The translations under genes were made by a program, and so were the position numbers. Shown here piece after piece: positions 20,320 through 45,859 of a stretch of DNA of 64,000 nucleotides. This stretch comes from a virus (Duplodnaviria > Heunggongvirae > Uroviricota > Caudoviricetes), in IMG/VR virus record IMGVR_UViG_3300014205_000001, positions 1-64,000 of that record, one strand, 5' to 3'. The notes under the pieces were generated by a model. That model had not been told where the DNA came from and did not search any database. It saw only the letters and a program-made list of their open reading frames with translations. Numbering within the stretch: the stretch's first letter is position 1; the number at the start of each line of letters is the position of its first letter.

Positions 20320-20508
20320 TTACGATTCTTTATTGTTTTCAGGTAAAATAACTGCTTGGTATCTAAATCCATCTGCACGAAAAGGAAACCCATACAAGAC
20401 ATAACCTTTGCTTAAAAATAAATTTACTTTTTCACTTAATTTTTCAGCACTGTCGCTATTTAGTAATAGATACACCTGTTTTACTTCAGTTACTTTTACT
20501 TCACTCAT
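20320..20508 (-). CDS. small DUF1737-like protein
   Basis: LSEKVNLFLSKGYVLYGFPF...YQAVI. Confidence 0.6.
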   Translation of the reverse strand: MSEVKVTEVKQVYLLLNSDSAEKLSEKVNLFLSKGYVLYGFPFRADGFRYQAVILPENNKES

Positions 20509-21668
20509 TTATGAGAAATTGCTGTTAAATATTTTAATTTGTAGTGCTGATTTAAAACATCTCCTAAATCTTTACCTTCGTAACCTTGTTGTTGAAATTT
20601 TTTCGTTGTTTCAGTAGAAGGACGGAAATCAACTAAATATTTCAAGTACTTTGAATTGTTCCCAAAAGACAATATATCTTCTGGGTATAATGAACACGAT
20701 TTCCATTGTTTATAAAATAATAACGGATGAAACAGTTTAACATGTACATCATCTGCATTACAATAGTTCAACAAAAAATCTACATTATTACAAATCACAG
20801 TAGGAAATTTACGTTCAATTAAAATTCCTTTTGCAATCGTAGGTACATATTTGCAAATTGCTGCAATCCAACAGCTAAAAGATTTGATTTTATCGTATTC
20901 CACAAAATCAAGTGCAATAGTGGGTACACTTACAAAAATTGTTGTATTTAATTTGCTATTGAATAGTAATTCAGTTGTATATTTTAAATCAAAAGATGAT
21001 GAATAAATAGTAGCTAATTCATTATAGATACGTTCGTATGTAACATTTAACGACGGATCATCCTGAATTGCTTTTAAGGTAAATTCTTCAATTTTGAAAT
21101 TTAAACGTGCTGCAAAACGTATTGCACGAAGTTTACGTAAATTATCTTCTTCAAAACGAAAAAAAGGATTACCTACAGCGCGGATTACACCTAACCATAA
21201 ATCACGAATACCACCTACCAAATCAATTACAGTATTTTGACTGATGTTGTAAAATAACGCATTGATTGTAAAGTCCCGACGTAACACATCATCAAACATT
21301 GTTACACCAAATCTAACTTCAGTATTTCTGTCAGATGTGTTATTTAAATCTTCGCGAAATGTTGCAATTTCGTATACAACATCATGTAATACAACTGCAA
21401 CGACACCAAAATGTTCACCTTGAAGTTGACATTGAATATTGGCGCGTTTCATTAATTCAATCACCTTGTTAGGTAACAAATTAGTACATAAGTCATAATC
21501 TTTAGGAGTTTTACGTAAAAATACATCACGTATACAACCACCCACTAAATATAGTTCATAACCATTTTCTTCAAATATATTTGCCAATTGACGAATATCA
21601 GAATTGAGATTGTGACGCAAGTACCATTCAACTTGAAATTTGAAACGTATTTTATTTAGTTTGAACAT
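20505..21668 (-). CDS. cca: tRNA nucleotidyltransferase (class II CCA-adding enzyme / poly(A) polymerase family)
   Basis: LYLVGGCIRD...KDYD, EIATFR, RRDFTINAL, FEEDNLRKLRAIRFAARL motifs. Confidence 0.88.
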   Translation of the reverse strand: MFKLNKIRFKFQVEWYLRHNLNSDIRQLANIFEENGYELYLVGGCIRDVFLRKTPKDYDLCTNLLPNKVIELMKRANIQCQLQGEHFGVVAVVLHDVVYEIATFREDLNNTSDRNTEVRFGVTMFDDVLRRDFTINALFYNISQNTVIDLVGGIRDLWLGVIRAVGNPFFRFEEDNLRKLRAIRFAARLNFKIEEFTLKAIQDDPSLNVTYERIYNELATIYSSSFDLKYTTELLFNSKLNTTIFVSVPTIALDFVEYDKIKSFSCWIAAICKYVPTIAKGILIERKFPTVICNNVDFLLNYCNADDVHVKLFHPLLFYKQWKSCSLYPEDILSFGNNSKYLKYLVDFRPSTETTKKFQQQGYEGKDLGDVLNQHYKLKYLTAISHK

Positions 21669-22245
21669 TTTGCGTAAGTTGTGTAAAAATTTCTTGTACT
21701 TGTGGATTTAAATTTTCTAACGAATTATTATGAATTACGAAATCAGAATTTTGTATTTTAAAATCTTGAGGTAATTGTGCATTTATTCGTTTATAAATAT
21801 CTGTTGTAGTTAATTCAGGATTACGTAATAAAATACGGCTAATTCGTAAAGTTTCAGCAGCGTCTACAGTAATTATTTTATCGACAATTTTTTGATGATT
21901 TGCTTCAAATAAAAGCGCTGTTTCATAAACAATGAAAGGATAAGTTCCTTTAACTGAAGCAACAAATTCTTTAAATTTACGTTCAATGACAGGTAAATAT
22001 AATTCGTTTACTTTCATTCGTATATTAATATCTGAAAACATTAAATCAGATACATATTTACGATTTAATGAACCGTCAGTTAAATATGCTTCTGTGCCAA
22101 TAATTTCAATTAATTGATCTTTAACTTCTTCGTTTGATTCTTTAGCACTTTTATCACTATCAAAAATAGGACAGCCTAATTGCTGAAATATTTTTGCAAC
22201 TGTTGTTTTACCACAACCAATACCTCCTGTTAAACCTACGATCAT
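21652..22245 (-). CDS. coaE: dephospho-CoA kinase
   Basis: IVGLTGGIGCGKTTV, DGSLNRK, YETALLFEA, RINAQLP. Confidence 0.88.
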   Translation of the reverse strand: MIVGLTGGIGCGKTTVAKIFQQLGCPIFDSDKSAKESNEEVKDQLIEIIGTEAYLTDGSLNRKYVSDLMFSDINIRMKVNELYLPVIERKFKEFVASVKGTYPFIVYETALLFEANHQKIVDKIITVDAAETLRISRILLRNPELTTTDIYKRINAQLPQDFKIQNSDFVIHNNSLENLNPQVQEIFTQLTQNVQTK

Positions 22246-22860: not shown

Positions 22861-23535
22861 TTCAAATTTTTTGTTTTCTTCTAAAGTATCACCGTGCATA
22901 TAATATGCACCTGTTTCTGCAATATCTTCACAAATATCTGTTGCTGCATAAGGTGACACAAAATCGGGTATGATCATCCATTCAAATTGTAAATGTTTTT
23001 CAAACCATGCAGTATTTTGAAAATATAAAGCATGCATAATTTCATGATACAGAACTGTTTCAATATCATCATCGCCACATTTAGCAGCTATATCAATTGC
23101 TGATGAAGGATGTCCTGTATAATAGGTCAAACCTACAACATTATCACCAAATGATGACCAACCAATTAACGAAATACTACTAATACATTTTATTTGTTTA
23201 TCACTAAAATGAGTATAGATGCAATTAGCTAAACGTTCACGATATTTATCGTATTCAGCAAATTGACCATCTACATATCTACTATCATTGCCATTTCGAA
23301 ATAGTGCACGAATATTATTTAAACGTATCGTATCTTCGTATTTAATAGGTTCAGGTTTAACTTCGATTATAGGTTCAGTTATTGGTCCTTGTGTAGTATC
23401 AATTTGATGTTGAGGAACAAAAGGATTGTTTTTAATCCAACTTTTAATTTGCGGATTGATAGTAAAGATATTAAAATAAAAAGCCACACCCAGAAGTATG
23501 AGTGTGGTGTAGACAAACGTGTGAATAGTTTTCAA
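22828..23535 (-). CDS. membrane-anchored zincin-like metallopeptidase
   Basis: N-terminal TM; HEIMH and FVSPYAATDICEDIAE motifs. Confidence 0.7.
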   Translation of the reverse strand: MKTIHTFVYTTLILLGVAFYFNIFTINPQIKSWIKNNPFVPQHQIDTTQGPITEPIIEVKPEPIKYEDTIRLNNIRALFRNGNDSRYVDGQFAEYDKYRERLANCIYTHFSDKQIKCISSISLIGWSSFGDNVVGLTYYTGHPSSAIDIAAKCGDDDIETVLYHEIMHALYFQNTAWFEKHLQFEWMIIPDFVSPYAATDICEDIAETGAYYMHGDTLEENKKFELISRFFTYTK

Positions 23536-23555
23536 GAGATATTGTATTTAATTAG

Positions 23556-23626
23556 TCGCGCTAGCAAGAATCGAACTTGCGACAAAGGCTTATGAGACCC
23601 CTGAGATACCACTTCACTATAGCGCG
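23556..23626 (-). tRNA. tRNA with CAT anticodon (Met, initiator-like; Ile2 not excluded)
   Basis: CGCGCTA...GGGGT CTCATAA GCCTT...GCAAG TTCGATT CTTGC TAGCGCG A. Confidence 0.85.
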
Positions 23627-24045
23627 GTATTTAATAATTGAATTGCTTTATCAGCTAATTCTTCAGTTAAACCTAAATATGAAATAGGTTGTATAAAATT
23701 TTTTAATTCATTGTAGTTACTAATTCCTTGCATTTTATCATCCAGAATCACGTAATTAGACCACTGATTTTCATCCAGCCAATGTTTTATTTCTAATCCT
23801 CGATCAACTCCCCAGATAGGTGTAATCCCAATCACATCAACACCAACACCATTTTGTAAAAAGATATTTTGTAAGTCGTTTATATTAGGCCAACGTACTC
23901 TCCAAGTAGAAGTTACTACACATTGTGCATTTGTTTCATCTACTATTCGATTATATTGTTCAACACATTTTTTACCCCATGTTCGTTTACTATGACCATA
24001 AAATGGAAATAATACTCCGTCTATATCTGTAAAAATTATGTTCAT
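23617..24045 (-). CDS. HAD-family phosphatase (Swiss-Army-knife RNA-repair-like HAD)
   Basis: IIFTDIDGVL, VTSTWR, RGLEIKHWL, YVILDD. Confidence 0.8.
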   Translation of the reverse strand: MNIIFTDIDGVLFPFYGHSKRTWGKKCVEQYNRIVDETNAQCVVTSTWRVRWPNINDLQNIFLQNGVGVDVIGITPIWGVDRGLEIKHWLDENQWSNYVILDDKMQGISNYNELKNFIQPISYLGLTEELADKAIQLLNTAL

Positions 24046-24266
24046 ATTCTATCAAAATACTTAATCCAACTTTCTAAATCTTCGTATTTTATATATGTTT
24101 TGTTTTTATTAATTGTGTGCCCAATGTAAAGTTTGTTATCGACAATATAAATTCGTGTGAATTTTCTTGTGTAATAACCAATGTCCTCAACAAATTGCAT
24201 CATCTTCATTTTCTTTGGAAAATCAATTTTGACACCATTAATTCTAATATCGTTTGATTGTTCCAT
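24042..24266 (-). CDS. hypothetical protein
   Basis: 74-aa ORF within tRNA cluster. Confidence 0.5.
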   Translation of the reverse strand: MEQSNDIRINGVKIDFPKKMKMMQFVEDIGYYTRKFTRIYIVDNKLYIGHTINKNKTYIKYEDLESWIKYFDRI

Positions 24267-24267
24267 G

Positions 24268-24392
24268 AAAGAAATATTGGATTCGAACCAATGGCACTAA
24301 TAAAGGGGTTCATGTATAAATACAATCGGTGCTCCTTGTTCATGTTGCATCCTGGACCAAGCACACAACGTTACCGGCTTTTCCAATTTCTT
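24268..24392 (-). ncRNA. 125-nt tRNA-like RNA (acceptor stem and T arm, enlarged body)
   Basis: AAGAAAT...ATTTCTT acceptor, ATTGG TTCGAAT CCAAT T arm, two internal hairpins, no canonical anticodon arm. Confidence 0.65.
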
Positions 24393-24393
24393 G

Positions 24394-24465
24394 TAGGCAA
24401 GCCGGGAGTTGAACCCGGATTCCGAACTTATCAGGTTCGTGTGCTAACCGCTCTACTACATGCCT
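24394..24465 (-). tRNA. tRNA-Ile(GAT)
   Basis: CGAAC CTGATAA GTTCG anticodon arm; CCGGG TTCAACT CCCGG T arm. Confidence 0.9.
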
Positions 24466-24468
24466 ATA

Positions 24469-24681
24469 TTATTTTAAATATGTATCGTGAATAACGTAAT
24501 TATCTTCACATTCTTTATTCCATAATTTTTTAATGTCTTCATCTGATAAAGAATCGACATCAACATTATTTTCGTGGATGTAATTATCCAATTTTGAAAG
24601 CATAGCATCTCTTTTTGTTTTATAGACACCTCTTACGCAATCCCATCCTGATTCAGGATTTGTTACAACATATACATTCAT
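24469..24681 (-). CDS. hypothetical protein
   Basis: 70-aa ORF between two tRNA-Ile genes. Confidence 0.55.
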   Translation of the reverse strand: MNVYVVTNPESGWDCVRGVYKTKRDAMLSKLDNYIHENNVDVDSLSDEDIKKLWNKECEDNYVIHDTYLK

Positions 24682-24697
24682 TTTATTTAAATTTTAG

Positions 24698-24769
24698 TGG
24701 GCATACCTGGAATCGAACCAGGGTTACGACATTATCAGTGTCGCGTGCTAACCATTCTACTATACGCCC
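24698..24769 (-). tRNA. tRNA-Ile(GAT)
   Basis: CGACA CTGATAA TGTCG; CCTGG TTCGATT CCAGG. Confidence 0.92.
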
Positions 24770-24774
24770 TTTTA

Positions 24775-24856
24775 ACAGCCGAACAAAATTGCACCTTTGT
24801 CTAAGTTCAGTAACGCTATCAGGTGCGCACCTGCTGAACATTCTATTTAGGGCTGC
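24775..24856 (-). ncRNA. structured GC-rich element in tRNA array (candidate ncRNA or degenerate tRNA)
   Basis: GCAGCC/GGCTGT closing stem, GTTCAG/CTGAAC stem enclosing CAGGT-GCGC-ACCTG, and GACAAAG-GTGCAA-TTTTGTT hairpin. Confidence 0.45.
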
Positions 24857-25042
24857 TTGTTAATCAAAGTCAAAATCTATTCCGTCATCTGGAAAATCAA
24901 TATCATCAAAGAGATATGCAATCCATAAAAAACCTTTTTTATAATCGTTAGTCATTACACCGATCACTAATGCGATAAAAATGTAAACTAATACACACCA
25001 CAAAACTATTTTCCAAATCATAATTTTAAATTTAAACGTTTG

Positions 25043-25114
25043 AGTCCCTAACAAGACTTGCACTTGTTTACCAGGTTTTGCAGACCAGTGTCATAACTAT
25101 TCGACCATAGGGAC
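25043..25114 (-). tRNA. tRNA-Cys(GCA)
   Basis: GTCCCTA/TAGGGAC acceptor, CTGCAAA loop, U73 discriminator; variant T loop. Confidence 0.85.
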
Positions 25115-25123
25115 ATTTAATTG

Positions 25124-25203
25124 AGCTGGTGATAGGACTCGAACCTACGATGTTTGTTTACCACTTTACAAGAGTGGTGCAATCGCCACTATGCGACACC
25201 AGC
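25124..25203 (-). tRNA. tRNA-Thr(TGT), enlarged variable region
   Basis: CCACT CTTGTAA AGTGG; 12-nt variable region. Confidence 0.88.
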
Positions 25204-25215
25204 ATTTTATTGTTG

Positions 25216-25299
25216 AGCTTGGTGAGGGATTCGAACCCCCGACTGGATTTCTCCTCCTGATTACAAATCAGGTGCGTTAGGCCACTGCGCTAACCAAGC
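25216..25299 (-). tRNA. tRNA-Thr(TGT), long variable arm
   Basis: CCTGA TTTGTAA TCAGG; variable arm GGA-GAAA-TCC. Confidence 0.88.
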
Positions 25300-25311
25300 A
25301 TTTTATTTTTG

Positions 25312-25383
25312 TAGGTAATGCTGGACTTGAACCAGCTTTAAGTGTGTATAAGACACCTGTGCTAACCCATCTACTAATTACCC
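25312..25383 (-). tRNA. tRNA-Ile(TAT)
   Basis: GGTGT CTTATAC ACACT; D arm like the two Ile(GAT) genes; A73. Confidence 0.85.
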
Positions 25384-25560
25384 TAGTATGATGAGCTTTG
25401 TATTCGATCTTTGTTCATGATAACATTTTTATTAATAATTTTTCTTTGTCGTACTTTGCTTTTGTTTTTTCGTATTCTTCTTTGGTAACAGAATTTTTAT
25501 AGTTAGTAGAATTTAATCTTTTTTCTAAAAATTCTAAATATTCTTTACGTTGTTGAATAG

Positions 25561-25797
25561 TTACTTCTTTTTTCTTTGCCATTTTATTTCACCTACTTTT
25601 TTAGCTTCATGTACATTATTTGCTTTTACAAATTGTGATTTTGTAAAATCTCCCCATTCATCGTTAGGATCGTGATGTCCTTTCTGACCAATAGCAATTG
25701 AATATTCATGTGTAAGTTTAATAAATAAATTTCCATTTACTGATTGCCATACATCGTAAATGTTTAAATCAAATTCTGTTTTCTTCTTCTTTGCCAT
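25561..25797 (-). CDS. hypothetical protein
   Basis: 78-aa basic ORF in tRNA cluster. Confidence 0.55.
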   Translation of the reverse strand: MAKKKKTEFDLNIYDVWQSVNGNLFIKLTHEYSIAIGQKGHHDPNDEWGDFTKSQFVKANNVHEAKKVGEIKWQRKKK

Positions 25798-25812
25798 TAT
25801 AAAAAATATTTG

Positions 25813-25885
25813 TTGGGACTATAGGAATTGAACCTATTATCTCTACCTCATACGGTAGCGTTTTCACCAGCTAAACTAAATCCCA
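25813..25885 (-). tRNA. tRNA-like gene with 6-nt anticodon loop (undetermined or pseudo)
   Basis: TGGGATT/AGTCCCA acceptor, normal D and T arms, CTACC GTATGA GGTAG. Confidence 0.65.
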
Positions 25886-25945
25886 AAACATAAGTATTAT
25901 GTGCACTAATATTTTATGTTTATTATTACCTTCCGATAATAATTG

Positions 25946-26026
25946 TACCCATACTCGGACTCGAACCGAGACACCCGAAGGTACTCGTTTCTAAAACGAG
26001 CGCGTCTACCATTCCGCCATACGGGC
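25946..26026 (-). tRNA. tRNA-Leu(TAG)
   Basis: CTCGT TTTAGAA ACGAG, long variable arm, A73. Confidence 0.93.
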
Positions 26027-26031
26027 ATTTT

Positions 26032-26138
26032 AAATAATTGGTTGGATTCGAACCAACGAAAAGTTTTCTTGTATACTGACTTTCACAGTTAACTTCCCTT
26101 CTATGGGAATACCTTGCCACCTCAGTCATCAACCATTT
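26032..26138 (-). ncRNA. ~105-nt tRNA-like RNA (acceptor stem and T arm, non-canonical body)
   Basis: AAATGGTTG/CAATTATTT stem, GTTGG TTCGAAT CCAAC T arm, hairpins TTCCC-ATAGAA-GGGAA and ACTG-TGAAAGT-CAGT. Confidence 0.6.
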
Positions 26139-26140
26139 AG

Positions 26141-26221
26141 TGTCCAAGAAGGGAGTCGAACCCTCATGCATTTCTGCGGCAGTTTTTGAAACTGCTGTGG
26201 CTGCCGTTACACCACTCGGAC
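26141..26221 (-). tRNA. tRNA-Leu(CAA)
   Basis: GCAGT TTCAAAA ACTGC, long variable arm. Confidence 0.92.
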
Positions 26222-26674
26222 ATTTTTTAATCTTTTTAATTTTTTGTTTTTAGAACAATATGTCTCTGTCTGCGAATGACAGTTAGGACAAAGTATTCTT
26301 AAATTTTTTAATCGATGATTTGTTTTATCTCCATCAATGTGATCAAGTTCGCAATTAATAGGTTTATTATTCCATTCATCAATTTCACATTCTTCACATT
26401 TGTTAAGTTTTAATCCTTCTTTAATTAAACGTAATTTTAATTTATACGTAGAATATTGTGGATGTAAACCTTTAAGAATATCTTTTAATTTGAATTTATG
26501 CAATTCATATTCATAATCTTCTCTTTTAATTCCTTTTCGTCCTTGATTAGCTTTATAACAACCTAATTTCTTTGCCAATCTAATAAAAGGATTTCTATTC
26601 AATCCTAAAATTTCTGCAGCTTCGCGCATTGTTTTTGCTTCATTGCATACTTTTATAAATTCTGTTTCATTCAT
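26207..26674 (-). CDS. HNH homing endonuclease inserted in tRNA array
   Basis: N-terminal HTH; CEEC...LDHIDGDKTNHRLKNLRILCPNCHSQT. Confidence 0.9.
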   Translation of the reverse strand: MNETEFIKVCNEAKTMREAAEILGLNRNPFIRLAKKLGCYKANQGRKGIKREDYEYELHKFKLKDILKGLHPQYSTYKLKLRLIKEGLKLNKCEECEIDEWNNKPINCELDHIDGDKTNHRLKNLRILCPNCHSQTETYCSKNKKLKRLKNVRVV

Positions 26675-26728
26675 AATTTATATATGAATTAACAGTAGTC
26701 ATGTTAGAAATTTATTCTAACATGAAAG

Positions 26729-26810
26729 TAACCCCGACGAGAGTCGAACTCGTACGCCTTACGGCACAGCATTTTAAGTGCTGCGTGTCTACCAGTTCCA
26801 CCACGGAGTC
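26729..26810 (-). tRNA. tRNA-Leu(TAA)
   Basis: CAGCA CTTAAAA TGCTG, long variable arm. Confidence 0.93.
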
Positions 26811-26819
26811 ATTTGGTAG

Positions 26820-26903
26820 TAGCCCTGGTGGGACTTGAACCCACACGATCTTGCGATCAACGGATTTTAAGTCCGTCGCCTATGCCAATTCGGCTACAGG
26901 GCC
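26820..26903 (-). tRNA. tRNA-Leu(TAA)
   Basis: ACGGA CTTAAAA TCCGT, long variable arm. Confidence 0.93.
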
Positions 26904-26912
26904 ATTTAAATA

Positions 26913-26928
26913 CAATATGTCAAAGACC
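26913..26928 (-). promoter_or_regulatory. boxA-like antitermination site
   Basis: GGTCTTTGACATATTG, resembling the boxA of Bacteroidota rRNA operons, 9 nt before the first tRNA. Confidence 0.55.
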
Positions 26929-26958
26929 TTACAATTATAAACTTTACTAAATCGTCGT

Positions 26959-26993
26959 AAAAACAAAAGGACCAATTTAAATTGGTCCTTTGT
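26959..26993 (-). terminator. attenuator terminator of the Leu/Ile/Thr/Cys/Met tRNA array
   Basis: AAAGGACCAAT-TTAA-ATTGGTCCTTT then TGTTTTT. Confidence 0.85.
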
Positions 26994-27015
26994 AAGTTTT
27001 ATTTAGTTACTAACA

Positions 27016-27090
27016 TTAGACCATAGAGCAGTTACATAACATTGTTATGCAAATAATCGTAAGTGTTAATATTAGTGTTGAAGTTTTCAT
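27016..27090 (-). CDS. leader peptide MKTSTLILTLTIICITMLCNCSMV
   Basis: 24-codon ORF between promoter and terminator; 18 of 23 non-initiator codons are Thr/Leu/Ile/Cys/Met. Confidence 0.85.
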   Translation of the reverse strand: MKTSTLILTLTIICITMLCNCSMV

Positions 27091-27095
27091 TGATA

Positions 27096-27174
27096 AGTTA
27101 TATATAAAAGTTTTTGTTGTTTGTTTAATTAATATAGTACAATTATAAGAATATTTTTTAATTCGTGAAAATTA
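27096..27174 (-). promoter_or_regulatory. promoter cassette of tRNA array 1 (close copy at 45864-45940)
   Basis: TTATAATTGTA motif plus TAAAC-N16-TATATATA. Confidence 0.7.
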
Positions 27175-27666
27175 TTGTTTATGAACGTAATTAAAATCTT
27201 GTAAAATCTTTATTGTTTTTGGGCTTAATACCCAATCTAAATTTCTGACTCCAAATTTCGCCGATAAATTATCATAGTCTTGGCGATGTTCCATATTATA
27301 CATTGCTAAATTCATTCTGCCTGATGCTGCAAGTTCTGTGTAATGTTTTATATCGTCAAAATTAAATTTGCTTATAGCACCATATACGACATCGTATACT
27401 TCAGAATATGTTTTAACGGGTAGTTGTTTTAATTGAGGATTTAAATTTAAAATAGTGTAATACATTTGACCACACTTATCAAAATCATCTTTTTCCCAAG
27501 CTTTAAAAAATTCATTTGCAAAAGTATCTGGGTCTGAATTTAATTTCCAATCAGTATAAATAGAATCTAAACCAATTTTAAGTCCTAATAAATACGAAGG
27601 AAAATATTGTTTACCTGTTAAACGACCTTCTACTATTTTACGAAATTCGTTAATAGAAGTAATCAT
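27172..27666 (-). CDS. MITSINEFRK-family protein (putative head-packaged protein)
   Basis: shared N-terminal decapeptide. Confidence 0.65.
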   Translation of the reverse strand: MITSINEFRKIVEGRLTGKQYFPSYLLGLKIGLDSIYTDWKLNSDPDTFANEFFKAWEKDDFDKCGQMYYTILNLNPQLKQLPVKTYSEVYDVVYGAISKFNFDDIKHYTELAASGRMNLAMYNMEHRQDYDNLSAKFGVRNLDWVLSPKTIKILQDFNYVHKQ

Positions 27667-28505
27667 TATTCGTTAATATTATTTACTTCTGTTTGAATGT
27701 ACATATCAATCACGTTAATTCCATTATCAAATGTTACAACGTTATTAGTATATAAAGTAGGAACAGCTTCCCCAAAATTTTCACCACTTTTGTATTTTAA
27801 TGGAAGTTTGGCTTGAATAGCATTGTTGATTTCTTCCCAGTGACGTTTAACTGCACCTTCTTTAACTAAATTTTTAAAAATAGTAAGATTAAGTTTTGCA
27901 ACTTGTTTAATTGTATTATTTAATTCAATAACAACAGCAGAATTACCTTCACTTTGTTTCATTAATTTTTGCAATGTCATTGTGATATTTAATAGTTGAC
28001 GACTAAAATCACTTTTACCTTCATGTGTATGAAAACCTCTTCCACCTGCAGGGTCTAAATCATTGTCATCAAATGCTCTTTCATCTTGACTATTATCAAG
28101 ATCACCTAAATCTTCACTTTGACTATTATCAAATTCGTCGAAACTATTTACAATTTGATCATCAACAATTGTTTTACCATTCATATTTGTATTACAAATA
28201 ATATAATAAGCATCTGTATCATTAGTAATGTAAAGTTTTACTGCGCCTTGTTTTGTAAAATATGATTCTACTTTATCAAAATCATAAGTTTCGTCACCTG
28301 TTATATCTTTCATAACACCAGGAAGTTCATCGGGTTCACGTACATCCATCCAATATAAAGAATCCGTCATTTCACCCATTGCTGATGCAGCTTGGTTTAT
28401 TACTTCTTCCATATCAGGAGTATCATTATAATTGTATTTAATGAAATCACCTTCAGGATATTTATTTTCGTATAATTTGCGAAATTCGTTAATAGTTGTT
28501 ATCAT
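27666..28505 (-). CDS. MITTINEFRK-family acidic protein (putative head-packaged protein)
   Basis: start re-placed at ATG 28505, just after GATATATA motif; shared N-terminal peptide. Confidence 0.65.
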   Translation of the reverse strand: MITTINEFRKLYENKYPEGDFIKYNYNDTPDMEEVINQAASAMGEMTDSLYWMDVREPDELPGVMKDITGDETYDFDKVESYFTKQGAVKLYITNDTDAYYIICNTNMNGKTIVDDQIVNSFDEFDNSQSEDLGDLDNSQDERAFDDNDLDPAGGRGFHTHEGKSDFSRQLLNITMTLQKLMKQSEGNSAVVIELNNTIKQVAKLNLTIFKNLVKEGAVKRHWEEINNAIQAKLPLKYKSGENFGEAVPTLYTNNVVTFDNGINVIDMYIQTEVNNINE

Positions 28506-28616
28506 ACTAGTATATATCAAAATAGTAATTTCAGTCAAAAATAACGCCTCAAAAAGTTTAATATATACTATAAATACGGATAAATAACTTATCCAATAAA
28601 AAGAACAATTATCAAT

Positions 28617-29180
28617 ATGGTACCACATTTTTCAAATGTATTATCGCATAATCAAAACAACGAACCTGTGTATAAGGCATTATTCGAAATTACTTTCGAT
28701 TTACCTGCAACATTAGGACGTACAACTGAAGAAGTTCGGTTAATGTTGGAAAATGCTCGTAATATCTCTTTACCAGTAACCCCAGATATTGAGGTTAAAA
28801 CACAGAACTTTAAATTCAGTACACGTGCGTATGTAACGTTACCGACTCAAACACATATCGCCGATTTTGAAATTAAATTTAATTTAAATGAATCTGAAAA
28901 AAATGCAGTATTTGTTTGGAATATTTTAAAATCATGGTACGATTTAGCATGGAACTCACAAACAGGTGAAACACATACTAAACGTGAAATGATCGGAAGT
29001 ATTATTGTAAATCAACACAATAAAAAAGGTCAAGTAATACGTCGTGTTACTTATCATAACTGTCAAATGATCGGCATTAGTCAAGTCGATTTAGATTGGG
29101 ATGCACCTACTGAAATTCTTGAATGTTCTGCTAAATGGTGTGCAGATTATTGGGAAGATTTATACATCGACCAAATTTAA
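28617..29180 (+). CDS. tail tube protein (T4 gp19/gp54-like)
   Basis: 187 aa; WNILKSWYDLAWNSQTGE...GSIIVNQHNKKGQVIRRVTYHNC...LDWD...DYWED. Confidence 0.75.
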   Translation: MVPHFSNVLSHNQNNEPVYKALFEITFDLPATLGRTTEEVRLMLENARNISLPVTPDIEVKTQNFKFSTRAYVTLPTQTHIADFEIKFNLNESEKNAVFVWNILKSWYDLAWNSQTGETHTKREMIGSIIVNQHNKKGQVIRRVTYHNCQMIGISQVDLDWDAPTEILECSAKWCADYWEDLYIDQI

Positions 29181-32137: not shown

Positions 32138-32713
32138 ATGGAATATAAAATTGGTTTAGAATTGTCTTACGAAGGCAAAACTGGTATCGTTAAATTCACG
32201 GACGAAGATGGTATTTTATTTGAATCAGGTAACAACCAAGAATTTATCCCGTATTCAAAATTGGAAGGTTTAGAACCTGTCCGTACAGGTGAAATTGTGA
32301 AACTACAAAAACCTAACGAAGAATCCTTTACAAATACTTCACCAAATAATGATGGTGATATTGAAGGTGACTGTACAGTATGTAAACAAAAAGCTGTTGT
32401 TGTTAAAGATCATATATGTCAAACGTTATTAAATATTGATTTAGGTAATGATGACGATTATGTTCCTTCATTCGAAGAATTTCAAGAAGCACGTAACATT
32501 TTTAAAGAATTTGATCAAACACAAATTGATCGTATGAAAAAGTTGTGGAGTTTTCAACATGCAAAATATCACAACAATACTTTCTTCGTTAATATCATGA
32601 AACAATTAGAAGAAAAGAAAAAATTATCCCAACGTCAATACGAAGAATTACAATACTTATTAGACAATGGTCGCAGTAAATATGAAGCAGGAGTGCTTAC
32701 TACAAAAAACTAA
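32138..32713 (+). CDS. hypothetical protein
   Basis: 191-aa ORF after TAATATATA motif. Confidence 0.6.
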   Translation: MEYKIGLELSYEGKTGIVKFTDEDGILFESGNNQEFIPYSKLEGLEPVRTGEIVKLQKPNEESFTNTSPNNDGDIEGDCTVCKQKAVVVKDHICQTLLNIDLGNDDDYVPSFEEFQEARNIFKEFDQTQIDRMKKLWSFQHAKYHNNTFFVNIMKQLEEKKKLSQRQYEELQYLLDNGRSKYEAGVLTTKN

Positions 32714-33480
32714 TGATTACCTCAATTAACGAATTTAGAAAACATTTAAACTCATCACCTATTAATGAAATGAGTTACGCATCTTTGCAAGGTGAAATTG
32801 ACGCTTTAAAATCACAACTTGCACAATTATTTGCAGATCAAGAATTAGAAGCAGGTCAAAAAGGTGATCAGTGGACAGACGAAGATGCTAATCGTTATGG
32901 TGCACAAATGGCAAAAATTGAACGTAAAATTGAAACACGTCAAAATTATATTAATCGTTTACGTACTGGCGTTAAAACTAAAAAACATTTAACTGTTGGT
33001 GAAACTGCTTTTTATAAAAACGAACAAGTTACTGTATTATCAATAAATTTAAATGATAATAATGCAATAGTTGTAAAAGGTGATGTTACTGTAAACGGAA
33101 CACCTTGTCAAATTACTAATATAGAAGGCGATAACATTTTTGTAAAAATGAATGGTAAAAACTTTGCACAAAAAGTGAAAATCGATCAAATCGAAAATAT
33201 AATTTCAGCAAATCTAAACGAATTAAGCACACAAGCAAATAAAGAACCTCGTGCACCAAAAGAACCCAAAGTAAAAACAAATATGGAAGTTAAACAAGCA
33301 ATTCGTACATTGACAAAAAATATGGATAGCGTAAAACCTTCTATTGATAAATTTAAAGACAGAAGTGCTGAACAACAAGCAACTATCTTTAAAACACGTT
33401 TTAATATGCCTGAAGATATTTCAACAATCGTTGCTGCTCTAAATCAAATGGGATTAATAACTGCAGAACCTACTGTATAA
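32713..33480 (+). CDS. MITSINEFRK-family protein
   Basis: shared N-terminal decapeptide; coiled coil. Confidence 0.65.
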   Translation: MITSINEFRKHLNSSPINEMSYASLQGEIDALKSQLAQLFADQELEAGQKGDQWTDEDANRYGAQMAKIERKIETRQNYINRLRTGVKTKKHLTVGETAFYKNEQVTVLSINLNDNNAIVVKGDVTVNGTPCQITNIEGDNIFVKMNGKNFAQKVKIDQIENIISANLNELSTQANKEPRAPKEPKVKTNMEVKQAIRTLTKNMDSVKPSIDKFKDRSAEQQATIFKTRFNMPEDISTIVAALNQMGLITAEPTV

Positions 33481-34067
33481 TGATAACTTCAATTAACGAA
33501 TTTAGAAAATATCTCATTGCTGAGTACAATAATTCAGCAATGAAAGATCATTATAATAAGTTAATTAATGATGGAAGTGAAGAACAGGAAGCTTTATTAA
33601 ATACTGCTTCTTGGTTTGAAACTACAAAAGATATTGTACATCAAGCTTTACAAGATGCTGCAGGTACGCACACAATTACTGAATCAATTAATCCTGTTGA
33701 AACACTAATCAGAACTGAAATTTCAAATAATTTTGTTGATTTTTTGTCGTGGACAACACCAATTGTCGAAGATCATTTTAATAAACCTAATTTAATTGTT
33801 GAAGAGGATTTTTGGGAAGATATTTTACAAGATAGTAAAAATGGTACCATTTCTGAAGATCAAATTAATCAAGGTTTATGTAATCAATTTGCCTTATACA
33901 TTAAATCTAAAATACCTTCAGTAGAAATTGAAGGTGATGTTACACAACATGTTGTTGTAAAATACAATAATTTATATTACGATTCAGAAAATCCTGAAGG
34001 AAAAAATTCTGTTGCAGAATTATATTCTGCAGAAGGTGAATTTTTTAAAAATAGAAAATTAACTTAA
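33480..34067 (+). CDS. MITSINEFRK-family protein with possible papain/transglutaminase-like C-terminal domain
   Basis: GLCNQFA...HVVVKYNNLYYDSE (Cys-His-Asp spacing). Confidence 0.55.
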   Translation: MITSINEFRKYLIAEYNNSAMKDHYNKLINDGSEEQEALLNTASWFETTKDIVHQALQDAAGTHTITESINPVETLIRTEISNNFVDFLSWTTPIVEDHFNKPNLIVEEDFWEDILQDSKNGTISEDQINQGLCNQFALYIKSKIPSVEIEGDVTQHVVVKYNNLYYDSENPEGKNSVAELYSAEGEFFKNRKLT

Positions 34068-44350: not shown

Positions 44351-44824
44351 TTATAAATTTTTCAAAAAGTTTATTGTAACTTCGTTAACAAAGAAAGGTT
44401 CTCCTTTTCCTTTTAATGTTTTCATTACATGACCTACATATAAACCTAACAGTCCTGTATTACCATTCTTATAATCAGTTAAATATCTAGGAAATTGTAA
44501 TACAAATTCCCGCAATATTCTTTCGATTTCTTTTCGTTGTAATCCACACAAACCTAAAACGACTAATGACATCTTTAACATTTCATTAAAGTTAGTTTCA
44601 CATTCTTCAATTGAATTACCCATTGCAATGGGTCCGCCTTCGCCTTCATATATTGCCATAAAACGATCTTCATCAAGTGTTTCACCACTACGATACATTG
44701 TACATTTTAATTCTACTTTTGTCATCCCATCAATTGTATTGGGACGATAATGTATCATGCCAGTATTACTATTTTTATAGTAATGATCTAACCATTTTTT
44801 TTCTATTCTATTTTCCATATTCAT
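44351..44824 (-). CDS. protein with C-terminal GatB/YqeY-like tRNA-binding domain
   Basis: YKNGNTGLLGLYVGHVMKTLKGKGEPFFVNE resembles GatB C-terminus; start re-placed to the ATG just after tRNA-Gln. Confidence 0.7.
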   Translation of the reverse strand: MNMENRIEKKWLDHYYKNSNTGMIHYRPNTIDGMTKVELKCTMYRSGETLDEDRFMAIYEGEGGPIAMGNSIEECETNFNEMLKMSLVVLGLCGLQRKEIERILREFVLQFPRYLTDYKNGNTGLLGLYVGHVMKTLKGKGEPFFVNEVTINFLKNL

Positions 44825-44826
44825 AG

Positions 44827-44900
44827 CTGCCCCACGAGGATTCGAACCTACGATTACCTGAGTCAAAATCAGGGGTCACTGCCAATTAGACGACAGGGCA
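44827..44900 (-). tRNA. tRNA-Gln(TTG)
   Basis: TGCCCTG/TGGGGCA acceptor, CCTGA TTTTGAC TCAGG. Confidence 0.88.
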
Positions 44901-44910
44901 TTATATTTTG

Positions 44911-44998
44911 TTGTCCCACCAGGATTCGAACCTAGATCGAAGGCGTATTACCGCTCGGCGTTCAAAGCGCCGTGTTCTGCCAGTTAAACTATAGGACA
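44911..44998 (-). tRNA. tRNA-Gln(TTG) with 20-nt variable region
   Basis: TGTCCTA/TGGGACA acceptor, CGGCG CTTTGAA CGCCG, variable AGCGGTAATACGCCTTCGAT. Confidence 0.85.
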
Positions 44999-45002
44999 TT
45001 AT

Positions 45003-45039
45003 AAAAATCAAAAAGCCTGATAAAACAATTATCAGGCTT
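45003..45039 (-). terminator. attenuator terminator before tRNA-Gln pair
   Basis: AAGCCTGATAA-TTGTT-TTATCAGGCTT then TTTGATTTTT. Confidence 0.88.
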
Positions 45040-45057
45040 CGTGTAAATTTGTATTAA

Positions 45058-45135
45058 TTAATTCAACAACGTGTCTGACAATATTTTTAAATATTGTTGC
45101 TGCTGCCATTGTGAATATGTAATTAAAATTTTCAT
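45058..45135 (-). CDS. leader peptide MKILITYSQWQQQQYLKILSDTLLN
   Basis: 25-codon ORF with CAA TGG CAG CAG CAA CAA, then terminator, then two tRNA-Gln. Confidence 0.88.
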   Translation of the reverse strand: MKILITYSQWQQQQYLKILSDTLLN

Positions 45136-45295: not shown

Positions 45296-45364
45296 ATGTG
45301 GCAGACATCGCTTAACTGCCGAGAAGTGTACCTTTTCTCTTCGAAATTTCTTTCGCGGTTTTTG

Positions 45365-45712: not shown

Positions 45713-45719
45713 ATATAAC

Positions 45720-45752
45720 AAAAAAATCCGAACTGTTGGGTTCGGATTTTTT
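45720..45752 (-). terminator. attenuator terminator of the Val/Ala/Gly/Gln tRNA array
   Basis: AAAAAATCCGAAC-CCAACA-GTTCGGATTTTTTT, ending 7 nt before tRNA-Val. Confidence 0.88.
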
Positions 45753-45772
45753 AAATTTCTTTTGTTATTTCA

Positions 45773-45859
45773 TTAACATAAGTTATCCGGACCGTGTGAT
45801 TTCCACACCGCTGCTGCGCCTTGTTGCCCGACTACTAATATGTTATTGAAGTTTTTCAT
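45773..45859 (-). CDS. leader peptide MKNFNNILVVGQQGAAAVWKSHGPDNLC
   Basis: 28-codon ORF with run GTA GTC GGG CAA CAA GGC GCA GCA GCG GTG. Confidence 0.88.
   Translation of the reverse strand: MKNFNNILVVGQQGAAAVWKSHGPDNLC

Follow-up and report, generated by a model that had tools for sequence, protein, structure and literature searches.

A probable leader-peptide attenuator ahead of a Leu/Ile/Thr/Cys/Met tRNA array in a jumbo phage

A short ORF and an intrinsic terminator precede a large tRNA array in the phage genome studied here; this element is real and conserved. Sequence comparison and RNA folding suggest that it probably functions as a ribosome-stalling (leader-peptide) transcription attenuator that adds to the expression of the Leu/Ile/Thr/Cys/Met tRNAs. 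The window, i.e. the whole stretch of DNA that was analyzed, comprises bases 1–64000 of a complete virus record of 391,061 bp with direct terminal repeats and 31% GC, and the virus is a jumbo phage. The attenuator had been proposed in an initial annotation of the window. It is supported by paralogous and orthologous units, by leaders re-matched to regrouped arrays, by matched antiterminators, and by the position of the control codons; three parts of the proposal, namely the switch as sole gate, the codon–anticodon match, and starvation as the input, were not upheld. The features of the locus and of two sister units are compiled in Table 1.

Table 1. Positions of predicted features in the window
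Feature	Position	Strand	Basis or remark
Predicted promoter P1 of the leader (TTTTCA ... TATAATTGTA)	27138..27171	-	upstream hexamer 6/6
Predicted promoter P2 (ATATATAA)	27098..27105	-	7 nt before leader ATG; also before four orthologous leaders
Leader ORF, 24 codons	27016..27090	-	orthologs with frame-preserving indels in L002, L005, L006, L020
Control codons 5-19 (15 consecutive Thr/Leu/Ile/Cys/Met codons)	27034..27078	-	run length, folding model, cognate-codon position
Segment 1, 5' strand of predicted 10-bp anti-antiterminator (1:2) helix	27067..27076	-	folding
Segment 2, overlaps last codons and stop; partner is segment 1 or segment 3	27009..27023	-	folding
Segment 3, 3' strand of predicted 12-bp antiterminator, including G/C core of terminator 5' arm	26983..26997	-	folding
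Intrinsic terminator, 11-bp stem (26991-26966), 4-nt loop, T-tract	26958..26991	-	47 nt past leader stop
Predicted bypass promoter P3, P1 class, behind terminator	26930..26939	-	upstream hexamer 5/6
Motif identical to one in Bacteroidota 16S-23S spacers	26913..26930	-	core conserved in L002, L005, L020
tRNA array A	23555..26903	-	ARAGORN; small ORFs between tRNAs
HNH endonuclease-like gene, after first two Leu tRNAs	26207..26692	-	PF13392, E 2e-4, below curated cut-off
Terminator-like hairpin after tRNA-Met	23484..23507	-	hairpin prediction
Sister unit B: 28-codon Val/Gly/Gln/Ala-rich leader and terminator, before Val-Ala-Gly-Gly tRNAs	45717..45859	-
Sister unit Bq: 25-codon leader with Gln run and terminator, before two Gln tRNAs	45005..45135	-

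The leader ORF and its uninterrupted run of control codons were found exactly as originally annotated. When the genome is read in all six frames, this run of 15 codons is the longest for the five amino acids (the runner-up has 10), and by L/I/T/C/M fraction the leader ranks first among 2422 ATG ORFs of 18–35 amino acids. The amino-acid set was not chosen post hoc, because the tRNA genes define it independently: in order, array A contains according to ARAGORN four tRNA-Leu (TAA, TAA, CAA, TAG), one degenerate tRNA (25812–25885), Ile (TAT), two Thr (TGT), Cys (GCA), two Ile (GAT), and Met (CAT). The locus has both clustered codons cognate to the downstream tRNAs and an intrinsic terminator between the leader and the controlled genes, as would be required of an attenuator.

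Perfect matches between leader codons and the encoded anticodons, to which the initial annotation had drawn attention, do exist (10 of 15), but 8.1 are expected from phage codon usage alone (p=0.20). Over the six leaders of this genome described below, Watson-Crick matches even fall below expectation (24 versus 29.6), and we rejected such matching as evidence for an attenuator because it is at chance level. The six leaders use synonymous codons that are rarer than those in phage genes (log-likelihood –66.5 versus –46.2 ± 5.0, 0 of 5000 simulations) and contain 35 distinct codons versus 30.9 (p=0.05). These rare codons may reflect a wide sampling of isoacceptors or a constraint on RNA structure.

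Within array A, the HNH-like gene carries its own ATATATAA motif at 26685, a possible further entry into the array, and the hairpin behind tRNA-Met probably ends the array transcript. Between the canonical tRNAs there are several degenerate tRNA-like or structured RNAs, at 25812–25885, about 26040–26130, 24270–24380, 24770–24860, and 45300–45360 (all –); one of them has a 6-nt anticodon loop. Both tRNA-Thr(TGT) genes (25123–25299, –) measure 81–85 nt and have long variable regions unusual for Thr, and the Gln(TTG) tRNA at 44910–44998 has 89 nt. TRNA-related neighbors on the same strand include a gene of the CCA-adding/poly(A) polymerase family (20505–21668), a dephospho-CoA kinase (21652–22245), a HAD_SAK_2 RNA-repair-type domain inside array A (23617–24045), and a GatB/YqeY domain gene directly after the Gln tRNAs (44351–44866). 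Rfam returned only tRNA at gathering score in the window and nothing credible at E≤1 between 23000 and 28000; a DapZ match on the terminator is sub-threshold (24 bits against a cut-off of 56) and was taken as chance. A T-box riboswitch, defined by a Stem I that carries a specifier loop and a T-box bulge, was also considered and rejected, as no T-box or other Rfam cis-element reached its cut-off.

Leader–terminator units occur six times in this genome, on six tRNA blocks: the window leader and five sisters. In the sister units, the short ORF lies 43–55 nt before the terminator T-tract and the T-tract 14–20 nt before the tRNA. Unit Bq is nested inside array B. Outside the table, a Lys/Phe/Asn/His/Trp-rich leader precedes the Phe-Trp-Lys-His and Asn tRNAs of block C, the Asn tRNA having been missed by ARAGORN and recognized by eye, a leader with a Tyr run precedes Tyr-Tyr tRNAs, and a Ser/Arg-rich leader precedes Ser-Arg tRNAs. 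When leaders were assigned to blocks in all possible ways, the true assignment ranked first of 720. The geometry by itself is nonspecific: 8 of 13 distinct short-ORF-plus-terminator units detected by a genome scan, which missed the Tyr unit, have no tRNA behind them. No free-standing leader stands before the lone Arg(CCT) tRNA, before the Gln/Met tRNAs that open block C, or before the Pro-Glu-Asp tRNAs that open block D. At the last of these places a terminator is present, fed by the end of a 146-aa ORF (G000:C1:233458-233940, +) that we take to be Thg1 (tRNA-His guanylyltransferase)-like; this ORF ends inside the terminator and its tail is Asp/Thr-rich. The relative L046 has a free-standing leader at the same place. 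Next to the lone tRNA-Arg(CCT), which adjoins downstream, a PTH2 peptidyl-tRNA hydrolase-like frame (18016–17670, –; PF01981, E 6e-8) starts with Met-Lys-Lys and then has TAG in frame as its fourth codon, an arrangement that a scan of the genome detected nowhere else. This may be a broken gene, or else a sensor of amber read-through or of release factor.

The tail-tube-like gene of the phage has relatives of 69–79% identity in IMG/VR and metagenomes and of 42–45% identity in phage records of 635–735 kb. Four diverged orthologs of the window leader (L002, L005, L006, L020) each stand before a Leu/Ile/Thr/Cys/Met array, with composition and frame conserved and residue order not. In the huge phages LR756502.1 and LR756501.1, the tRNAs are grouped otherwise and the leaders are re-matched (for example Glu/Tyr; Glu/Met/Gln/Ile; Leu alone); here, an Asn tRNA has moved into a Leu/Val/Ile/Thr block along with Asn-rich control codons. 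Degenerate patterns for further orthologs of the window leader gave no match in 33 loci and none in viral_contigs. Patterns for the sister leaders found tRNAs behind four of five matches in one search and two of three in another, L029 and L044 being matches with no tRNAs behind them; Tenacibaculum phage PTm1 gave no tRNA match.

A fixed rule was applied to 35 tRNA clusters, which yielded 34 units in 26 clusters; nine clusters had no rule-picked unit, including the 12-tRNA array of LR756501.1 and that of L002, whose leader was found by hand. The enrichment of leaders for the amino acids of their own arrays summed to 139, whereas permutations averaged 6.9 (0 of 20,000), although the units share descent and pooled p-values overstate their independence. 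When the test was restricted to the 11 units of LR756502.1 and LR756501.1, the sum was 46.7 against 0.8 (0 of 20,000). The own amino-acid set was among the top 3 of 20 for 31 of the 34 units, while the L046 unit showed no enrichment for its own array. Weight is carried by the within-genome and huge-phage-only tests, because orthologs are not independent and four units (L042, L043, L045, L047) come from records found by leader-derived patterns. The near-duplicate loci L007, L008, L015, L021, L030, and L033 were kept outside the unit set, as was L023, in which the part inspected upstream of the bypass ORF showed no leader. A rule-picked unit inside array A (53-aa ORF, 4-bp hairpin) entered the composition test and was dropped from later ones, so that the pairing, folding, and codon-position tests cover 33 rule-picked units and the hand-added L002.

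Some relatives show peculiarities of their own. The 12-tRNA Ile/Cys/Asp/Asn/Tyr/His array of LR756501.1 (L056, W02:C1:184800-189200), without a leader by the rule, follows a gene that is presumably ribosomal protein L7/L12-like. L061 and L008 encode amber-suppressor (CTA) tRNAs, which lack a dedicated leader. The first tRNA-Leu(TAA) seems to be split by a long insertion in L002 (about 5150–4700, –) and in L023, where the insertion contains an HNH-like ORF; it is possibly an intron.

The terminator claimed in the initial annotation was borne out, with a folding energy of –13.4 kcal/mol (z –4.9) for its stem. For the 1:2 hairpin, the claimed outer helix is part of the minimum free energy structure as a 10-bp helix (–17.2, z –3.8), but the second pairing is not; the inner helix of that structure is a different one of 9 bp at about 27052–27032. 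The 6 bp named for the antiterminator also exist, but its length had been understated, since the pairing extends to 12 bp (6+3+3). This interrupted helix (–10 kcal/mol) was equaled in 2 of 200 shuffles, and a comparison of the window duplex with shuffles gave p=0.07, singly a borderline value; among the five orthologs, the matched arm–leader pairing ranks only 15 of 120. Over the 34 units, the pairing of a terminator 5' arm with its own leader end averages –11.6, versus –5.6 for downstream controls, a result reached in 0 of 50,000 permutations, and within the genome the own pairing ranks first of 720. The predicted antiterminator is mutually exclusive with, and specific to, its own terminator, the window unit alone being borderline.

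The effect of translation was modeled by masking the RNA to 12 nt past the ribosomal A site and folding the remainder as far as the terminator loop. While codons 2–19 of the window leader occupy the A site, the terminator arm is predicted to be sequestered with a probability of 0.98–0.99 (0.99 for codons 3–19), which drops to 0.74 at codon 20, to ≤0.21 later, and is 0.21 at the stop codon. A footprint of 9 or 15 nt moves the switch edge by one codon, and the modeled direction is the same in 33 of 34 units. In the model, ribosome position thus selects the fold, ON for a stall at the control codons and OFF at the stop, given the assumed 9–15 nt footprint and kinetic trapping. Since the complete terminator always wins in the equilibrium fold of the window unit (P=1.00), read-through would need a kinetic trap. 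The 1:2 helix alone is stable, but once segment 3 is included in a ribosome-free fold, the antiterminator is favored (0.80), and the mean of this ribosome-free ON fold over the 34 units is 0.66. The initial annotation had described a five-input OR gate, and in the model any stall at codons 2–19 gives the ON fold, i.e. an OR-type response, and this also holds for codons 2 and 4, which are non-cognate.

The last codon of the control run (19) coincides with the switch edge, being the last position at which a stall leaves the antiterminator free. Cognate codons make up 313 of 526 (60%) inside the switch-competent part of the leaders and 59 of 284 (21%) outside, with a higher fraction inside in 33 of 33 comparable units, a comparison confounded with N- versus C-terminal position.

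Two motif classes precede the leader. TATAATTGTA occurs 47 times in the genome, 39 of these copies being intergenic, and 65 of the 91 copies of ATATATAA lie ≤70 nt upstream of a gene start; the latter class is probably a late or phage-sigma promoter. A further motif, flagged in the initial annotation at ~26930–26942, proved to be a real promoter-class motif. An equivalent motif stands behind the terminator in 5 of 5 A-type (orthologous) units and in 0 of 29 others. Transcription of the array only from this motif had been named as a finding that would overturn the attenuator, an objection that carries weight given the predicted promoter there. Because promoter-like motifs are located behind the terminator and, at 26685, before the HNH gene, the switch is probably not the sole gate, and the array could in principle be made without read-through. 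For the window block, we regard a basal supply from the promoter behind the terminator, topped up by the attenuator, as probable. In most sister blocks, the gap from terminator to tRNA is too short to hold a promoter. Among the sequencing runs listed for 23400–28000, no RNA data set covering the region turned up.

The predicted bypass promoter of the window abuts the 18-bp motif before the first tRNA, which we take to be an rrn-type boxA. This 18-mer has 46 matches in genome_contigs, 16 of them Bacteroidota by title; five of these 16 lie directly before 23S rRNA, compared with none of four non-Bacteroidota loci scanned alongside. In L002, L005, L006, L020, and L023, a conserved ORF of 75–82 aa is located between the bypass promoter and the boxA-like motif, whereas the window has none between the terminator and the first tRNA-Leu. 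No Pfam family was found for this ORF of the relatives, an alignment search with the 75-aa version returned only five loci, all on contigs already in the relatives' set, and its profile gave one marginal match in the window genome (E 9.8e-4).

Based on these observations, we propose the following mechanism. Once a ribosome arrives at codon 21 or the stop, it would cover segment 2, and the terminator would form. A pause at any of codons 2–19 would instead break the 1:2 helix and free segment 2, which could then pair with the terminator 5' arm and let the polymerase read through. Any slow codon of the five amino acids would suffice. The promoter behind the terminator would provide the basal tRNA supply and the attenuator the top-up, and new tRNAs would shut the switch in a negative feedback loop. 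The proposed input, amino-acid starvation, would trip the switch, yet a shortage of functional tRNA is the likelier adaptive signal because extra tRNA cannot supply an amino acid. Such a shortage might arise from heavy phage demand or from decay or cleavage of host tRNAs, the latter two being known host responses (PMC10264068, PMC11555353). More tentatively, and with somewhat less than even confidence, we suggest that jumbo phages of this Bacteroidota type use such units as a genome-wide panel of ribosome-based tRNA-damage sensors, in which each block is keyed to a test gene sampling the codons of its amino acids, rare synonymous ones included. Removal of a tRNA by a host anticodon nuclease or a tRNA shut-off would then cause transcription of exactly the replacing block, a counter-defense that is both inducible and self-limiting and a tRNA homeostat without a protein regulator.

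Other explanations have to be weighed against the attenuator. It might be real in origin and minor here, with the array transcribed almost wholly from the promoters at 26939 and before the HNH gene while the leader transcript mostly terminates. The post-terminator motif of all five orthologous units with the boxA-like motif behind it, the weak antiterminator of the window, and the observation that the L002 terminator arm pairs better with the window leader end than the window's own arm does (–18.6 versus –8.8), a hint of erosion, all fit this explanation. We nevertheless consider it unlikely: of its 16 cognate codons the leader retains 15, the two upstream promoter motifs and the 12-bp antiterminator are still in place, and the joint conservation of leader, bypass motif, and switch in four diverged orthologs is hard to account for unless read-through is under selection. 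A sensor of general translation slowing or loss (ribosome damage, failed initiation, antibiotics), merely biased by the codon match, would need no block-specific codons that shift when arrays regroup, which makes it decidedly improbable, even though the ON fold is predicted in the absence of a ribosome and at the non-cognate codons 2 and 4, and a repressor-controlled bacterial tRNA array is described as induced by translational stress (PMC8421152).

The initial annotation had itself named a small membrane peptide as an alternative, in which an ordinary constitutive terminator follows a membrane or signal-like peptide and the tRNA match is coincidental. The leader peptide does start with Met-Lys and continues with a hydrophobic stretch containing Cys (Kyte-Doolittle mean 2.3), and more than half of the short-ORF-plus-terminator units of the genome have no tRNA behind. 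But Val, Ala, Phe, Gly, and Trp are completely absent from 72 positions of the five orthologous leaders, whereas 23 of 23 N-terminal hydrophobic 16-mers of the phage used as controls contain at least two of them (mean 4.9 per 16-mer). Composition is conserved without residue order, a Pfam search of the leader peptide gave no match, and the five sister leaders, which are not hydrophobic, still match their own blocks. We rejected a membrane or signal peptide, for which ordinary composition and conserved sequence would be expected, and rate it as very unlikely indeed. A ribosome-stalling attenuator that supplements a bypass promoter remains our preferred interpretation.

Multivalent leader-peptide attenuators control amino-acid operons such as ilvGMEDA, thr, and ilvBN of E. 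coli and Salmonella, and related systems act on trp, his, leu, pheA, and pheST. The window unit shares with them a leader ORF with regulatory codons, predicted alternative 1:2, 2:3, and 3:4 helices, and an intrinsic terminator, and in both the control region ends where a stalled ribosome stops freeing segment 2. They differ in what is controlled: enzymes or synthetases there, and here phage tRNA genes whose product would directly relieve the signal. Five amino acids per leader, six leaders nested genome-wide, and a bypass promoter behind the terminator further set the window system apart. A classical attenuator is OFF by default when untranslated, whereas the untranslated window leader is predicted to prefer the antiterminator. 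T-box riboswitches likewise tie a terminator/antiterminator decision to tRNA charging, but they bind uncharged tRNA directly. In mycobacteria, poly-Cys small-ORF attenuators reportedly turn downstream genes on when VapC4 depletes a tRNA and ribosomes stall; these concern chromosomal protein-coding operons and one amino acid, in contrast to the tRNA genes of the window unit. Literature on this mycobacterial subject includes 10.1101/834739 and Barth et al. 2021. Phage tRNAs are also said to act as counter-defense against the tRNA-cleaving system PARIS.

The mechanism proposed here is ribosome-mediated attenuation as outlined in PMC1183508, and a flavobacterial transcriptome study gives strong clues for leader-peptide attenuation upstream of amino-acid operons (PMC9723704). 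For phage tRNAs as counter-defense, a T5-like tRNA-Tyr against retron Eco7 (PMC11555353) and evasion of anticodon nucleases (PMC10264068) are described. As array A might do, such tRNAs can replace depleted host tRNAs, and their expression level matters for rescue; the described control is a strong promoter, and the main texts of both papers mention no sensor or attenuator. The nearest functional analogue is the TrcR-repressed Anabaena trn operon, or L-arrays (PMC8421152, PMC10272220). It is switched on when translation is impaired, as predicted for array A, and resembles array A in having an HNH/homing endonuclease inside, but its DNA-binding repressor acts at initiation and is not codon-specific, unlike the window leader. 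The terms "attenuat", "leader", and "terminator" have no occurrence in the main text of PMC8421152, nor has "attenuat" in those of PMC7162821, PMC11555353, and PMC10264068. Attenuation of tRNA genes or phage tRNA arrays was not reported among the literature matches listed, with supplements and subscription papers largely outside their coverage.

The reason that phages carry tRNAs has long been debated, with codon supply and the replacement of host tRNAs destroyed by defenses as the main ideas. An attenuator at this locus would extend the textbook mechanism from enzyme operons to tRNA genes, with the product itself closing the loop. If this holds, the phage would gauge how fast codons are decoded and produce tRNA as needed, and the amino-acid-wise grouping of its tRNA arrays would be explained. 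Each leader would be a ready-made reporter of the tRNAs that run short during infection, and leaders can predict tRNAs missed by gene finders, such as the Asn tRNA of block C.

Attenuation of this kind presupposes a polymerase coupled to translating ribosomes. Because the genome has three sigma-70 matches and no match for a phage RNA polymerase beta subunit, transcription is inferred to be carried out by the host RNA polymerase with coupled translation. The host is probably a member of the Bacteroidota. At equivalent promoter positions, the relatives use TATATTTG, which fits the Bacteroidota –7 consensus TAHHTTTG as given in PMC6847099. The motif of the window genome itself, TATAATTG, deviates at one nearly invariant consensus position, and for this reason the host assignment is not firm. 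Ribosomal protein S21, sought as a host clue, gave no match. Elsewhere in the genome, ARAGORN at relaxed stringency predicts a permuted tmRNA-like gene (G000:C1:71178-71573, +) with both promoter motifs upstream. In addition, the peptide MIT[ST]INEFRK occurs at or near the start of several unrelated-looking ORFs, e.g. 27172–28628 (–) and 32713–34067 (+), and is possibly a shared targeting or packaging tag.
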